Source of the DNA: Thiomicrospira sp. | GTDB taxonomy: Bacteria; Pseudomonadota; Gammaproteobacteria; Thiomicrospirales; Thiomicrospiraceae | Assembly (NCBI RefSeq): GCF_014859555.1 | Contig: NZ_JACUTY010000005.1 | Location: 1,462-65,461, forward strand | DNA length: 64,000 nt | Direction: 5' to 3' | Part shown: in pieces, positions 57,052 through 61,878 of the stretch | How the letters are laid out: every line of letters starts with the position of its first letter | Position numbering within the stretch: position 1 is the first letter of the stretch | The notes under the pieces: model-generated | The model's input: the letters and a program-made list of their open reading frames with translations, nothing else | Databases searched by the model: none | Told to the model about the DNA's origin: nothing | Program-made: the position numbers and the translations under genes

Positions 57052-57432
57052 ATGTTAAAGAAATGGACGAGTGCGGTATTGGCTTTAGCCTTTTTAGGTT
57101 TATCAACTATGCCGTTGCAAGCTGCGATGGTATCAACTGATGAATTAATTTCAACGCAACAAGCCCAAATGGACCGTGAATCTATCGCGGCTTTATTAGA
57201 TCGTGCTGATGTACAAGAAAAATTGGTCGCGATGGGTGTAACAGTCGGTGATGTTGAACAGCGTATTGCCTTAATGACAAACGCAGAAGTGGCACAACTG
57301 AACCAACAAATAGCCGACTTGCCAGCGGGTGAAGGTGTGGTTGGTATATTGGTGTTATTGTTTGTTATTTTCGTCGTCACGGATGTAATTGGCGCAACGA
57401 ATATTTTCCCGTTCATCAGACCGGTTCGTTAA
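57052..57432 (+). CDS. PA2779-family exported/membrane protein, copy 1
   Basis: Signal peptide, AMVSTDELI...VEQRIALMT...LPAG...TDVIG...FPF pattern; AGGAG RBS. Confidence 0.82.
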   Translation: MLKKWTSAVLALAFLGLSTMPLQAAMVSTDELISTQQAQMDRESIAALLDRADVQEKLVAMGVTVGDVEQRIALMTNAEVAQLNQQIADLPAGEGVVGILVLLFVIFVVTDVIGATNIFPFIRPVR

Positions 57433-57493: not shown

Positions 57494-57638
57494 AGGGTTA
57501 TTGATCCTGACACCGGTTCGCAATCTATTTTAACTGGACGTTGGCGGCCCCTAGAGTTTACAGCTTGCGGTTTAAAAGAATAGGGTTTATATTTTATATG
57601 AAGTCTTCATAATTTTAATGAAGCAAGGAGCGTTAAAT

Positions 57639-58019
57639 ATGTTAAAGAAATGGACGAGTGCGGTATTGGCTTTAGCCTTTTTAGGTTTATCAACTATGCC
57701 GTTGCAAGCTGCGATGGTATCAACTGATGAATTAATTTCAACGCAACAAGCCCAAATGGACCGTGAATCTATCGCGGCTTTATTAGATCGTGCTGATGTA
57801 CAAGAAAAATTGGTCGCGATGGGTGTAACAGTCGGTGATGTTGAACAGCGTATTGCCTTAATGACAAACGCAGAAGTGGCACAGCTGAACCAGCAAATAG
57901 CCGATTTACCGGCGGGTGCGGATGTGGTTAGCGTGCTGGGGTTATTGTTTATTATTTTCGTGATAACAGACGTGTTTGGTTTAACGAATGTTTTCTCTTT
58001 TATTAGACCGGTTCGTTAA
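57639..58019 (+). CDS. PA2779-family protein, copy 2 (tandem duplicate)
   Basis: First 245 nt identical to copy 1; ATG at 57639 after AGGAG. Confidence 0.82.
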   Translation: MLKKWTSAVLALAFLGLSTMPLQAAMVSTDELISTQQAQMDRESIAALLDRADVQEKLVAMGVTVGDVEQRIALMTNAEVAQLNQQIADLPAGADVVSVLGLLFIIFVITDVFGLTNVFSFIRPVR

Positions 58020-59026
58020 TGTTCAGCAGATTTAATGCCATACACACCCAGCTTCGGCTGGGTGTTTTGTTTATGGGAATTTTAGGTTTGTCAGTTCTGA
58101 CTGGTTGCGCCACTAGTCCGCAAACGCAGCAATTGATAACGCAACCCTCCGCAACATTCAAAGCAACCGAGTTAACAGCCGTGCCTTTTTTTCCACAAAC
58201 CGAATATCAGTGTGGTCCGGCGGCTTTAGCGACCGTGATGCAATACCGTGGGCGAGAAGTGTTTCCAGATGATTTGGTAAGCCAGGTTTATATTCCAGAA
58301 AAAAAAGGCAGTCTGCAAATTGAAATGATCGCGGCCACACGCAAGCAAGGTTTAATGCCTTATCCCTTGGCACCTAAACTATCGGCTTTACTCAGCGAAG
58401 TTGATGGGGGTAATCCGGTGTTGGTGATGCAGAATTTGGGGCTAGATTGGTTTCCGGTTTGGCATTATGCGGTGGTGGTGGGTTATGATTTAGCAGAACA
58501 ACAGCTTGTTTTACGTTCGGCTGAAACTAAGCGTTGGATTAGTGATTTGTCAACGTTTGAACGTACCTGGCAGCGCAGTAATTATTGGGCGTTGGTGATG
58601 GTTAAGCCGGATCAGTTGCCCGCTACTGCCGAACCAGCCGCTTGGCTTAAAACCGCGTTTGAGCTTGAGCAGGTCGGGCAAACGACGGCCGCCGCTCAAG
58701 CTTATCAAGCCGGTTTAACTCAATGGCCGGATTCATTTGAAACCGGGTTGGCTTTAACCAACTTGCATTACAATCAGAAAAACTTTTCCCAAGCAGGTAC
58801 CGTTTTTGAATCCATGGTTTCGCAACATGGCTCAAATGCGATCCTATGGAATAACTGGGCTTATAATTTAAAAGCTCAATCCTGCATAATTCAAGCCAAA
58901 CAAGCCGCAGCTTGTGGGCTTAAACGTCAACCGGAGTTGATTAATATCCAATCCACTTGGTCCGAAATGCAAACCCTGTCGGAAAAAACTCAAGCGGCCA
59001 ACTGCCCCGTTATAAAATGCGATTAA
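58019..59026 (+). CDS. PA2778-family lipoprotein (C39-like cysteine peptidase + TPR)
   Basis: Lipobox LTGC, QCGPAALA (Cys), WHYAVV (His) and TPR-like C-terminus. Confidence 0.82.
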   Translation: MFSRFNAIHTQLRLGVLFMGILGLSVLTGCATSPQTQQLITQPSATFKATELTAVPFFPQTEYQCGPAALATVMQYRGREVFPDDLVSQVYIPEKKGSLQIEMIAATRKQGLMPYPLAPKLSALLSEVDGGNPVLVMQNLGLDWFPVWHYAVVVGYDLAEQQLVLRSAETKRWISDLSTFERTWQRSNYWALVMVKPDQLPATAEPAAWLKTAFELEQVGQTTAAAQAYQAGLTQWPDSFETGLALTNLHYNQKNFSQAGTVFESMVSQHGSNAILWNNWAYNLKAQSCIIQAKQAAACGLKRQPELINIQSTWSEMQTLSEKTQAANCPVIKCD

Positions 59027-59229
59027 CGCTGAGTGCTACCAGGCCTGGTGGTAATAAATCGAAGCTAATAGTTGTAAAACCAAACATTTGATCGCAATAT
59101 ATTTGGGTTTTTGCATCACAATGGTTACAATCGCGACAAATTACGGTGTAATGACTTTTTGATTTTTAATGTTTGCATTATGAATAAAATTTTTGCAGTC
59201 TTTATATAGAGCGTCATACACAAACATTA

Positions 59230-59389
59230 GGGCACCTCGATTAACCCCTGGTTGATTCTGCGGGGCTTAGCCAAGTTTCTCAGCTCTGCGTTGTGAACCT
59301 TTGCAAGGTCTAGACATTCCTTCAGGTTCACGCCTTGATCTGAAAAACTTGGCGTTGCCAGAATGAATCAGGGGTTAATCGAGGTGCCC
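59230..59389. mobile_element. 160-bp non-autonomous MITE-like palindromic element
   Basis: 21-bp perfect TIRs GGGCACCTCGATTAACCCCTG (59230-59250 / 59369-59389), flanked by direct ATTA repeats (59226-59229, 59390-59393), with nested internal inverted repeats. Confidence 0.75.
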
Positions 59390-59409
59390 ATTATATTTAA
59401 GGTTTATCA

Positions 59410-61878
59410 ATGAAGAATTTGGTGATAGTAGAGTCGCCGGCCAAGGCCAAGACCATCGAACAATATCTGGGCAAAGATTTTACTGTGCGCTCCAGTTACG
59501 GACATATTCGTGACTTGTCGAAAAAAGGTATGGGGATTGATCTGGCTAATCGATTTGAGCCGAGCTATGAAATATCACCGGACAAAAAGAAAACCGTCAC
59601 CGAGCTGCGAAAGCTCGCTAAAGAGGCCGATGCGGTTTGGTTGGCGACGGATGAGGACCGCGAAGGGGAAGCCATTGCTTGGCACCTAGCGGAAGCCTTA
59701 AAGCTGAATGTGGCAGAAACCAAACGTATCGTATTCCACGAGATCACCAAAGATGCGATCACCCATGCGGTCGCGCATCCGCGTACCGTGGATCTAAACT
59801 TGGTGAATGCGCAACAAGCACGTCGAATTCTAGATCGTGTGGTCGGGTTTGAATTATCGCCAATCTTGTGGAAAAAAATTCGTACTGGGCTCTCGGCCGG
59901 TCGTGTGCAATCGGTTGCGGTGCGTTTGATTGTTGAACGTGAACGTGAAGTTGACGCTTTTAATGCGCAAGTGTCTTATAAAGTTCAAGGCCAGTTGCAA
60001 CCAATTGGTGAGCAGGGCGAACTCGGCGAAACGTTTAATGTGAAACGTGTTGCCGGTTTTGAAACCGAACAGCAAGCGCAACAGTATTTAGAAGCGCTGG
60101 CGTTATCCAGCTTAAAGGTTGAAAACCTAGAACAAAAACCCGCCAAACGTGCGCCTAAAGCGCCGTTTACCACTTCAACTTTGCAGCAGGAAGCCTCACA
60201 AAAACTGGGATTTTCGGTCAAACAAACCATGGTGATTGCCCAGCGTTTATATGAGTCCGGTAAGATCACTTATATGCGTACCGACTCAGTCAACCTGTCG
60301 GAAACCGCGATTGCGCAAGCTAAGCAAACCATTGAATCTGATTTTGGCGCGAAATATAGTCATCCACGTCGGTTTAAAACCAAGCAAGCGGATGCCCAAG
60401 AAGCCCACGAAGCCATCCGCCCCACCGAGTTTTCGGTGCGCGAAGTCAATGGCGAGCGCAACGAACAACGTTTATATCAGCTAATTTGGCGACGCACGAT
60501 GGCCTCGCAAATGGCGGAAGCTGAACTGCTGCGCACCACGGTCGATATCAGCGTGAGTGAATTGGCGCAAGAAAGATTACAAGCCAAAGGTGAAATGGTC
60601 ACGTTTGATGGCTTCCTAAAGGTTTATAACCTTGACGGAACCAAAGATGACGATGTGTTGCTGCCAGCCATGCAAGTGGGTCAAGCGCTTAATTTGGTTG
60701 AGATGGTCGCCAAACAAAGCTTCAGTCGTGCACCAGCACGTTACAACGAAGCCAGCCTAGTCCGTACCCTAGAAGAAATGGGAATTGGTCGTCCCTCTAC
60801 TTATGCACCCACCATTGATACAGTTCAACAACGTGGCTATGTAGTCAAAGAGGATCGCGAAGGCACACCACGCGAAATTCGTCAGCTCACCCTTAGTGGT
60901 GGAAAAGTCGAAGCCGAAACCTTGTCTGAAATGGCGGGGGCGGAAAAAAACAAACTTTTCCCAACCGATATTGCTGGCATAGTGAATGACTTTTTAGTGA
61001 AAAACTTCGGTGAAGTGTTGGATTATAAGTTCACCGCTAAGGTCGAAGCCGAGTTTGATGAAATCGCGACAGGCGACCAGGCCTGGCAGGATATGTTGGA
61101 AAGTTTTTACACCAAGTTTCATCCGAAAGTTGAAGTGGCCGAAACGCTTTCTAGAGAAGAGGCTGGTCAAGCGCGGGCGTTGGGTGATGACCCTAAAACC
61201 GGCAAACCCGTGTTTGTTAAAATCGGACGTTTTGGCCCTTATGTTCAGCTAGGCGAAGGCGAAGATGATGAAAAACCCACCTTTGCCAGTTTAAGACCCG
61301 GCCAAAAAATGGATACGCTGAAGTTAGATGATGCGATGGAGTTGTTTAAATTACCTCGCAGTTTGGGCGAAATGCCTGAGTCCTATTCAGCTAAAGCCGC
61401 CGATGGCACCGAGTTTGTTGTCGAAAAAGGTCAAACCTTGATCGCCAAACAAGGGCCATTCGGGCCTTATTTGGAATACGGCGAAAAACTGTTTGCGCCG
61501 ATCAAAGGTTACGATCCATTAAGCATTACTTTAGACGAAGCGGTGGTGTTGGTTGAAGCCAAAATTCAAGCCGATGCGGACAAAATTGTGCGTAGCTTCG
61601 CGGGCACGGATGTCAAAATACTCAATGGCCGTTGGGGACCATATATTACGGATACCTCAACCAAGGTGAATGCTAAAATTGCCAAAACCGAAGACCCGAA
61701 TGATTTGACCTTAGAAGAATGTCAAAAACGTTTAGCTGAAGCACCACCACCTAAAAAACGTGGCCGAGCCGCGGCTAAAAAACCCGCCGCCAAAAAAGCG
61801 ACGGCTAAGAAGGCCCCCGCTAAAAAACCAGCGGCCAAAAAGCCCGCCAAAAAGCCCGCGACTAAAGCTAGCAAATAG
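59410..61878 (+). CDS. topA: DNA topoisomerase I with C-terminal repeats and Lys/Ala/Pro-rich tail
   Basis: IVESPAKA, ATDEDREGE, SAGRVQ, ITYMRTDS, GIGRPST, GRFGPY repeats and PAKK tail. Confidence 0.97.
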   Translation: MKNLVIVESPAKAKTIEQYLGKDFTVRSSYGHIRDLSKKGMGIDLANRFEPSYEISPDKKKTVTELRKLAKEADAVWLATDEDREGEAIAWHLAEALKLNVAETKRIVFHEITKDAITHAVAHPRTVDLNLVNAQQARRILDRVVGFELSPILWKKIRTGLSAGRVQSVAVRLIVEREREVDAFNAQVSYKVQGQLQPIGEQGELGETFNVKRVAGFETEQQAQQYLEALALSSLKVENLEQKPAKRAPKAPFTTSTLQQEASQKLGFSVKQTMVIAQRLYESGKITYMRTDSVNLSETAIAQAKQTIESDFGAKYSHPRRFKTKQADAQEAHEAIRPTEFSVREVNGERNEQRLYQLIWRRTMASQMAEAELLRTTVDISVSELAQERLQAKGEMVTFDGFLKVYNLDGTKDDDVLLPAMQVGQALNLVEMVAKQSFSRAPARYNEASLVRTLEEMGIGRPSTYAPTIDTVQQRGYVVKEDREGTPREIRQLTLSGGKVEAETLSEMAGAEKNKLFPTDIAGIVNDFLVKNFGEVLDYKFTAKVEAEFDEIATGDQAWQDMLESFYTKFHPKVEVAETLSREEAGQARALGDDPKTGKPVFVKIGRFGPYVQLGEGEDDEKPTFASLRPGQKMDTLKLDDAMELFKLPRSLGEMPESYSAKAADGTEFVVEKGQTLIAKQGPFGPYLEYGEKLFAPIKGYDPLSITLDEAVVLVEAKIQADADKIVRSFAGTDVKILNGRWGPYITDTSTKVNAKIAKTEDPNDLTLEECQKRLAEAPPPKKRGRAAAKKPAAKKATAKKAPAKKPAAKKPAKKPATKASK

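Follow-up and report, generated by a model that had tools for sequence, protein, structure and literature searches.

The closest described relatives of the element reported here are bacterial transposable elements of the miniature inverted-repeat type (MITEs) derived from insertion sequences (ISs) of the IS5 family. The element is a 160-bp palindromic repeat that lies immediately upstream of topA, the gene for DNA topoisomerase I, in a stretch of 64,000 nucleotides (the window) from Thiomicrospira sp. (assembly GCF_014859555.1, contig NZ_JACUTY010000005.1, positions 1,462 to 65,461 of the forward strand). Like IS5-derived MITEs, it is short and non-coding, ends in IS5-type terminal inverted repeats (TIRs), is flanked by a 4-bp AT-rich target-site duplication (TSD), occurs in multiple intergenic copies, and is polymorphic in presence and absence between close strains. 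Duplications of 4 bp are what the IS5 group makes in the ISfinder classification, a rule for which our literature search found no citation. The element departs from IS5-derived MITEs in sharing only 20 nt of its TIR with an IS, and the matching IS was found only in other, Acidithiobacillus-like bacteria and not in the host.

Other families of short repeats resemble the element in part. Correia elements (NEMIS), which belong to Neisseria, have a TA duplication, 26-bp TIRs, IHF sites and promoter elements, and no transposase is known for them. They are of comparable size (~100–160 bp) and have long TIRs that pair into a hairpin in messenger RNA (mRNA). Many are situated directly before genes with which they are co-transcribed, and they too occur as full-length and internally deleted size variants. 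The duplex formed by Correia TIRs is of sufficient length for RNase III, which cleaves Correia-containing mRNAs at the TIRs (PMC10969869). In contrast, the present element has a 4-bp TSD, an IS5-type TIR and no promoter-like site, and its sequence is unrelated, as judged without comparison to a Correia consensus; the IHF-like motif WATCARNNNNTTR is found on neither of its strands. ERIC/IRU elements, known from enterobacteria and vibrios, are imperfect palindromes over their whole length (~127 bp), are transcribed with their neighbours, and have a context-dependent effect on mRNA decay, which is exerted through RNase E (PMC10969869). They have their own sequence and host range and act in an orientation-dependent manner via an RNase E site, whereas the element shows neither a significant orientation bias nor a clear strand asymmetry. 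Tn3-derived TIMEs are likewise non-autonomous, use AT-rich targets and begin their inverted repeats (IRs) with a run of G; their IRs measure ~38–40 bp and their duplications 5 bp (PMC4133298). The TIR of 21–31 nt, the 4-bp duplications and the end shared with an IS5-family IS set the element apart from them. The palindromic elements of Rickettsia are mobile repeats of ~100–150 bp that are palindromic throughout, as is the element. They often lie in frame within protein-coding genes and are not known to have clear TIR or TSD signatures, whereas all copies found of the present element are intergenic, with TIRs and TSDs.

The element is not a Correia element, a TIME, a REP or a member of any Rfam family. 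It shows every defining feature of a MITE that can be tested and represents a new sequence family of an ordinary kind, with no new principle involved. We consider it likely that the element is a non-autonomous MITE with IS5-type ends, carried before topA as a tolerated passenger and not as a dedicated regulator of that gene. What gives it added interest is an architecture of two hairpins maintained by compensatory change, the very recent burst of copies with no detectable cognate transposase, and the natural filled and empty alleles of the topA site.

An inserted, multi-copy palindrome with IS5-type ends

The two arms of the element are complementary at 21 of 21 nt, and at 94% of positions over 31 nt. 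The TIR 21-mer occurs twice in the 64-kb window, both times at an end of the element (chance expectation 0.01), and the window holds one copy. Nested within the TIRs are inner stems formed by ATTCTG with CAGAAT, by GCCAAGTTTCTCAG with CTGAAAAACTTGGC (1 mismatch), and by GTGAACCT with AGGTTCAC. The palindrome has a centre of 10 nt and several mismatches in its arms. As single-stranded DNA (ssDNA), 168 nt fold at −50.9 kcal/mol, compared with −19.0 ± 3.1 kcal/mol for shuffled sequences (z = −10.5; 0/200 as good), and the RNA fold of the 160-nt element alone reaches −93.5 kcal/mol.

The locus is occupied in one population and empty in its relatives. The host is a Thiomicrospira near T. pelophila, the closest named genome, which has a TopA 96% identical and the same gene order (dprA, DUF6627, C39 peptidase, topA, argS). 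The T. pelophila spacer (L014, L015), ...ACACAAACATTATATTTAAGGTTTATCAATG, contains one ATTA and no element, and its empty site reads ...ACACAAACATTATATTTAAGG.... Contigs of other sequencing runs aligned to positions 58600–60000 join 59224 to 59389 and leave out exactly 164 bp, a length that corresponds to the 160-bp element together with a single ATTA. This joint is present in the DNA metagenomes X2 and X3 and in the salt-lake metatranscriptomes X7, X11, X12 and X16, and the flanks in X2 are ~98% identical to the window. A volcano metagenome (X1) that contains 94% of the query's sampled words has flanks 100% identical to the window at a depth of ~1,000–1,100, and only filled junctions are found there, at a depth equal to that of the flanks. 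The presence of one clean target in relatives at several levels of divergence indicates that the empty state is ancestral rather than a product of excision. The insertion at topA took place after the split from populations ~98% identical; because one population carries the element at this site and others so closely related do not, it marks very recent strain divergence.

The volcano metagenome also bears on copy number. In total, 238 contigs fall on the element, with 156 at ≥99% identity to the window copy and 68 crossing its ends. The summed depth is ~79,000–84,000 in the terminal bins and higher in the core, giving a ratio to the flanks of ~75 or more, and several variant-specific unitigs have a depth of ~1,000x, equal to that of the window's genome. 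These values suggest ~35–80 copies per genome, possibly more, a rough estimate that allows for double counting and is compatible with one copy per this 64-kb window. Copies that are ≥99% alike imply recent activity.

Further copies were sought in public collections with the 19-nt TIR core; both scans demanded an exact 19-mer, and diverged copies and a diverged partner IS are under-sampled in them. With one genome per species, the core was found at 13 loci, nine of which hold real copies in sequences with the metagenome-assembled genome (MAG) labels Thiomicrospira, Hydrogenovibrio, Thiotrichales, Piscirickettsiaceae and 'Methyloprofundus', and the metagenome scan yielded 8 further loci with copies. 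De-duplication left 12 distinct sequences at 10 independent insertion sites. Copy sizes range from 150 to 267 bp, the majority being 260–267 bp, and TIRs are kept in 12/12. Perfect 4-bp AT-rich duplications flank 6 of the 10 sites and vary among them (ATTA, TAAA, TAAT, AATA, TTTA and TAAA). A Tn3-type duplication of 5 bp, ambiguous at the window site, was considered and rejected: it is conceivable at three sites only, because the element starts with G and ends with C, and it is impossible at L007 and L009, which permit only 4 bp. At least 2 copies lie on a complete Hydrogenovibrio chromosome. One metagenome contig carries two long-form copies 495 bp apart (L020:693-953 and L020:1448-1707), one young (94% identical to L005, TSD TAAA) and one old (82%, TSD gone), which points to repeated insertion into one intergenic neighbourhood. 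Contigs L001, L010 and L012 terminate within the element, the usual sign of an assembly-breaking repeat, and the family is likely missed or mis-called in annotations of Thiomicrospira and Hydrogenovibrio genomes. Neither the plasmid collection (blastn) nor the viral contigs (exact TIR) gave a match to the element, and our literature search found no paper with the TIR string and none linking Thiomicrospira with MITEs.

Copies L001, L006 and L010 lie on contigs of JACUUF01, labelled 'Methyloprofundus sp. isolate Kmv24', and spread of the element into Methylococcales was considered on this account and rejected. The EAL/GGDEF protein encoded next to the L006 copy is most similar to Thiomicrospira proteins (86–89% identity), and the L006 locus is present in X1 at 100% identity and 38x depth, alongside the 1,000x Thiomicrospira of the window. 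Because this flanking protein is Thiomicrospira-like, the Kmv24 contigs appear to be mis-binned Thiomicrospira DNA. The element family has so far been found only in Thiomicrospiraceae.

The ends of the element match those of IS5-family ISs. Metagenome contigs L018, L021 and L028 carry the first 20 nt of the TIR without a difference (20/20), followed by a different interior. In L028, this interior continues as the C-terminal part of a transposase. The fragment matches Pfam DDE_Tnp_1 (4.5e-11) and positions 214–284 of the 285 in NCBIfam NF033581, 'IS5 family transposase' (5.5e-18). Homologues of this fragment gave related IS ends, namely GGGCACCTCGATCAACCGC in Acidithiobacillus caldus-type contigs and GAGCACCTCGATCAACCCC, GGGAACCTCGATCAACCTC and GGGCACATCGAACAACCCC in three others. 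A complete but frameshifted IS of 1,213 bp (L033:3197-4409), reached through the same homologues, has the ends GGGCACCTCGAAAAAC... and GGGCACCTCTAAAAAC..., also given as GGGCACCTCGA..., and its transposase, when read through, matches NF033581 end to end with 236.8 bits (cut-off 140) and contains DUF772 and DDE_Tnp_1. Judged by this identity, the TIR belongs to a clade of IS5-family elements, because its 20 nt are the end of an IS with an NF033581-matching transposase. The MITE shares the TIR alone with the IS, and since the interiors are unrelated, it is not a simple internal-deletion derivative of that IS. Mobilization would occur in trans by an IS5-clade enzyme.

An earlier note on this DNA, made from the letters alone, had anticipated much of this. 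The perfect 21-bp TIRs, the ATTA flanks, the nested stems and the single long hairpin that it described are all in the sequence. It had taken the element for a non-autonomous one of IS5 type, in agreement with the shared 20-nt end, and the empty-site alleles with a single ATTA that it proposed to look for exist in T. pelophila and several metagenomic populations. Its suggestion to look for further copies and an autonomous partner was borne out in the first part, the element being multi-copy, but no autonomous partner was found in the host. Its statement that the window offers no open reading frame (ORF) and no transposase holds for ORFs of ≥40 aa, none of which overlaps the element, and for IS5-type transposases, none of which was detected in the window by tblastn, other transposase families not having been screened there.

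Related ends also occur outside this family. An Alphaproteobacteria MAG holds a 135-bp element (L008:3208-3342) with the same TIRs, one arm exact and the other with 3 mismatches, and with an interior that is GC-rich, palindromic and unrelated to the MITE; it seems that a different MITE family arose in this other class from the same IS5-clade ends. Lone TIR matches at L003:5344-5365, L004:3484-3505 and L025:5351-5372 share the 22-mer GGGCACCTCGATTAACCCCATG on high-GC, unrelated contigs. These loci have no further similarity and no second TIR within the locus, and the inward side of L025 resembles the start of thrS. The matches may be solo IS ends or another conserved site. The lone-TIR loci L002–L004 were considered as IS ends and rejected as partners of the MITE, their neighbours being ADP-ribosylglycohydrolase, phosphatase and similar genes with no transposase.

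Two-hairpin architecture

The alignment of copies gives a consensus fold in which the TIR outer stem encloses two long hairpins. Module 1, of ~100 nt, is present in long copies only, and module 2 is the core of the short form. The long form measures ~263 bp, and the window copy is without module 1. In the long form, two short direct repeats, GGGACTTA and GGGGCTTA, bracket the junction GGGGCTTA. One orthologous site holds the short copy L007 and the long copy L027; the flanks are 92% and 87% identical and the TAAT duplication is common to both, and the short form is therefore a deletion derivative of the long form. A separate deletion, between CCCGAA repeats, characterizes the 150-bp copy L009.

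Pairing is kept beyond the TIRs. In a set of 12 sequences that are kin by descent, 97.3% of 963 cells are standard pairs, and two-sided changes occur at 21 of 90 pairs, compared with 6.3 ± 1.8 in shuffles (0/500) and 2–6 in slid controls. All helices of both modules, bar two short ones, contribute compensatory changes, and a compensatory pair is seen even within X1 (59299 C>G with 59325 G>C). The alifold energies of the two strands are about equal (−87.7 vs −83.6 kcal/mol), and G-U pairs are not clearly above C-A. Due to this weak strand asymmetry, the pairing constraint is not assignable to RNA from one particular strand. The pairing may stem from selection for a hairpin, whether of DNA or of RNA, and arm-to-arm templated correction of the quasi-palindrome could be another source. 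The compensatory evolution of both hairpins is a well-supported instance that bears on the question of why many bacterial MITEs retain a structure over their whole length.

The topA leader and competing explanations

The insertion point is exactly 20 nt before the topA ATG and 9 nt before the likely Shine-Dalgarno (SD) sequence, downstream of a conserved block in which a direct repeat of ~19 nt contains two TTTGCA boxes 20 nt apart. The block is kept upstream of topA in T. pelophila and in L016 and L017 (relatives with 85–90% TopA identity). Metatranscriptome contigs of empty-site relatives begin at positions corresponding to 59183, 59162, 59115 and 58790 and run on into topA, and the contig starting at 59183 has a depth of 93, whereas the gene upstream is covered at ~6 in that run. 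As these RNA contigs start at least 46 nt upstream, the insertion point is within topA-carrying RNA, which makes the topA 5′ leader the probable location of the element. In the predicted fold of the leader (59185–59450), the element forms a self-contained hairpin whose outer stem has 24 contiguous pairs (−111.4 kcal/mol vs −18.4 kcal/mol for the empty leader), the rest of the leader structure is unchanged, and the predicted pairing probability from SD to AUG is 0.57 when the element is present and 0.59 when it is absent. The family copies examined are all intergenic; L005, L007 and L013 are among those located 12–41 nt upstream of start codons. With respect to neighbouring genes, 7 copies are co-oriented and 2 are in the opposite orientation, which is not significant. 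Recent insertion and absence from close relatives mean that the element is not a conserved component of topA control.

A course of events consistent with these results would begin with an IS5-clade DDE transposase that moves the element in trans and duplicates a 4-bp AT-rich target. The 160-bp copy arose by internal deletion of an element of ~263 bp composed of the TIR stem and two hairpins, the family amplified recently to tens of copies in this Thiomicrospira lineage, and one copy inserted 20 nt upstream of the topA start codon. The native topA promoter would then read through this copy as part of the 5′ leader, in which the hairpin (~−90 kcal/mol) would close and rejoin its flanks with the SD and AUG as accessible as before. 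A self-closing hairpin with an accessible SD and AUG would explain why an insertion before an important gene is tolerated. We infer that the element is mobilized in trans, that this copy is transcribed, and that it is nearly neutral.

Several observations weigh against this reading. The duplication is imperfect at three sites (3/4 bases) and absent at one old copy (82% identity). In addition to the negative tblastn result in the window, the L028 IS end at ≥80% identity was absent from contigs of X1, X2 and X7, where a more divergent partner is possible; its alignment to X3 contigs was negative as well, and when Thiomicrospiraceae genomes were scanned for the exact TIR, all hits were MITE copies. 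The related ISs that can be assigned to a host belong to Acidithiobacillus and Thiomonas, not Thiomicrospira. With no cognate transposase found in the host, the mobilizing enzyme is deduced from the TIR by itself. The copy number is derived from summed unitig depths in X1, a mixed sample in which a second Thiomicrospira population (38x) carries the element. The RNA evidence consists of assembled contigs of relatives, which are not maps of transcription start sites (TSSs) and may contain DNA, and the filled allele was found in none of the public RNA runs, which yielded only empty-site relatives and other copies. Moreover, conservation of the whole hairpin exceeds what a transposase needs and hints at a constraint beyond that of a pure passenger.

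The conserved pairing raises the idea that the hairpin is functional, either required for mobilization or selected as an insulated leader module. In the former case, folded ssDNA or a cruciform might be the substrate of a distant or unrecognized enzyme acting in trans; in the latter, a self-closing RNA module might be the one kind of insertion that 5′ leaders can accommodate. The compensatory changes across genera, the recent burst without a cognate transposase, and the copies 12–41 nt before start codons motivate this idea, which we regard as speculative and unlikely. If the latter were true, the element would be a natural portable leader hairpin modulating mRNA fate at dozens of genes, topA included. 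Post-transcriptional control of topA in particular would not exclude a tolerated insertion. RNase III would cut the 24-bp outer stem, or the hairpin would block or attract other RNases, parting topA from its native 5′ end and altering mRNA stability, as with Correia elements. The contiguous outer stem, the very stable RNA hairpin overall, the transcription of the site indicated by the relatives' RNA contigs, and the several copies located shortly upstream of start codons are in line with such control, and the RNase III cleavage of Correia mRNAs at their TIRs and the RNase E effects of ERIC offer precedents (PMC10969869). However, no RNA run searched contains the filled allele, T. pelophila and the ~98% identical populations lack the insertion, so that topA control is independent of it, the orientation counts are not significant, and the weak G-U versus C-A asymmetry gives no sign of strand-specific RNA selection. 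RNase-mediated control is improbable in our view, although it is the main rival of the tolerated-passenger reading. The element could also act as an outward promoter for topA or as a terminator for the upstream peptidase gene, since the native leader is interrupted just 20 nt from the ATG and there are documented cases both of promoters carried by MITEs and of MITEs that resemble terminators (PMC10969869). Downstream of the GC-rich stem base comes AUUAUAUUU, and because the targets are AT-rich, copies of the element frequently have a U-rich tail behind them (for example TTTATTT in L013). Nonetheless, a consensus scan of both strands of 58900–59500 detected neither a sigma-70-like promoter nor a terminator-like site, inspection by eye found no convincing −35/−10 pair in the upstream region and no properly spaced pair at the right end of the element, and the structure is not that of an intrinsic terminator, a short GC-rich hairpin with a loop of 3–8 nt and a T-run behind it: ATTATATTT comes after the stem base, but in place of a short loop there are ~110 nt that are themselves structured. 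If a strong terminator stood 20 nt ahead of topA without a later promoter, an important gene would be silenced, and we consider either role quite improbable.

A DNA-level effect has even less to recommend it. Under negative supercoiling, the palindrome would extrude as a cruciform, alter the topA promoter, and act as a homeostatic supercoiling sensor. A near-perfect 160-bp palindrome with a stable ssDNA hairpin adjoins the very gene whose product relaxes negative supercoils, and pairing that is conserved symmetrically on the two strands would be consistent with a constraint acting on DNA. Position is the sole basis of this idea, however, and the same element adjoins many unrelated genes; the insertion at topA is recent and not conserved, the element is downstream of the conserved block and probably of the TSS rather than within the promoter, and a 10-nt centre and mismatched arms would disfavour extrusion. 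A supercoiling sensor is thus very improbable. We give hardly more than slight credence to an origin outside the IS5 family, that is, to a Tn3-derived TIME, a REP/BIME or an integron attC site. The IRs of Tn21-like transposons begin GGGG.CACCTC, which the TIR start GGGCACCTC resembles; the AT-rich targets recall the Tn3 family, and the long imperfect palindrome recalls attC. In contrast, the 4-bp duplication is seen at 6 sites, whereas Tn3-derived elements make 5 bp (PMC4133298), and the identical 20-nt end is joined to an IS5-family transposase gene. REPs are much shorter and have no TIRs or TSDs, and neither a cassette array nor an integrase is nearby. Lastly, a structured non-coding RNA (ncRNA) gene or riboswitch belonging to topA would fit the strong fold and its compensatory changes, but the empty sites effectively refute it and leave it almost no probability: the element is missing from the orthologous leader of close relatives and is multi-copy with TSDs at unrelated loci. 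Rfam gave no match in the whole window at the gathering score, only noise in 59030–59450 at E up to 10, and nothing on the element at six other family loci at E up to 1.

The earlier note had placed the element 20 nt upstream of topA and in its leader. The ORF in question has the domains of a topoisomerase (Toprim, Topoisom_bac and three Toprim_C_rpt matches), and the RNA contigs of relatives agree with the second claim. An Rfam ncRNA match, which the note had named as evidence against a mobile element, was not obtained, nor did any other of its refuting outcomes appear. The note had further proposed that the hairpin acts as a supercoiling- or RNase III-sensitive control of topA. Nothing we found supports this, and regulation of topA by the element is best described as a possibility. 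The locus offers a clean example from nature of a hairpin of 160 nt with a perfect stem, inserted 9 nt before a topoisomerase I ribosome-binding site, and the natural isogenic filled and empty alleles render the effect on leader processing and supercoiling homeostasis directly measurable.

Feature coordinates and other observations in the window

Positions of the element, its parts and the neighbouring topA features in the window
Feature	Position	Strand	Basis or remark
Conserved block, two TTTGCA boxes	59168..59206	+	Upstream of insertion point, outside element; candidate topA promoter/operator
Left target-site duplication ATTA	59226..59229	.	Empty site in T. pelophila and metagenome contigs has one ATTA
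MITE, short form, 160 bp	59230..59389	+	+ is the orientation of long-form reference L005; aligned with 11 other distinct copies
Left TIR GGGCACCTCGATTAACCCCTG	59230..59250	+	First 20 nt are the end of an IS5-family IS (L018, L021, L028)
Deletion junction GGGGCTTA	59259..59266	+	Site of missing ~100-nt hairpin module 1; alignment of copies
Internal hairpin, module 2	59270..59353	+	Stems 59270-59283/59340-59353 and 59293-59300/59324-59331; apical loop near 59306-59317
Right TIR	59369..59389	-	With left arm, 24 contiguous bp (59230-59253 with 59366-59389)
Right target-site duplication ATTA	59390..59393	.	Sequence; single ATTA in empty sites
Likely topA Shine-Dalgarno AAGG	59399..59402	+	9 nt past element, 7 nt before ATG; read from sequence
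topA, type IA DNA topoisomerase I, 822 aa	59410..61878	+	Domains; 96% identical to T. pelophila TopA

The gene upstream of topA (58019–59026) encodes a C39-like peptidase with TPR repeats. A 12-bp palindrome, ACCAGGCCTGGT (extended ~CACCAGGCCTGGTGGTT), has one copy 11 nt past the stop codon of this gene, in the topA upstream spacer. The palindrome occurs 16 times in the 64 kb (expected 0.00), with starts at 2612, 4002, 11179, 14532, 14938, 16872, 19164, 19755, 21098, 29887, 35997, 44267, 53501, 56785, 59038 and 63816. Eleven copies are within long ORFs and 5 are intergenic, and in T. pelophila, as at other Thiomicrospira loci, the palindrome recurs every 3–5 kb. It resembles a DNA uptake sequence or a word that is otherwise over-represented genome-wide. 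Upstream of the peptidase gene lie tandem DUF6627 genes (57052–57432 and 57618–58019). T. pelophila has one, which implies a local duplication or insertion in this lineage.

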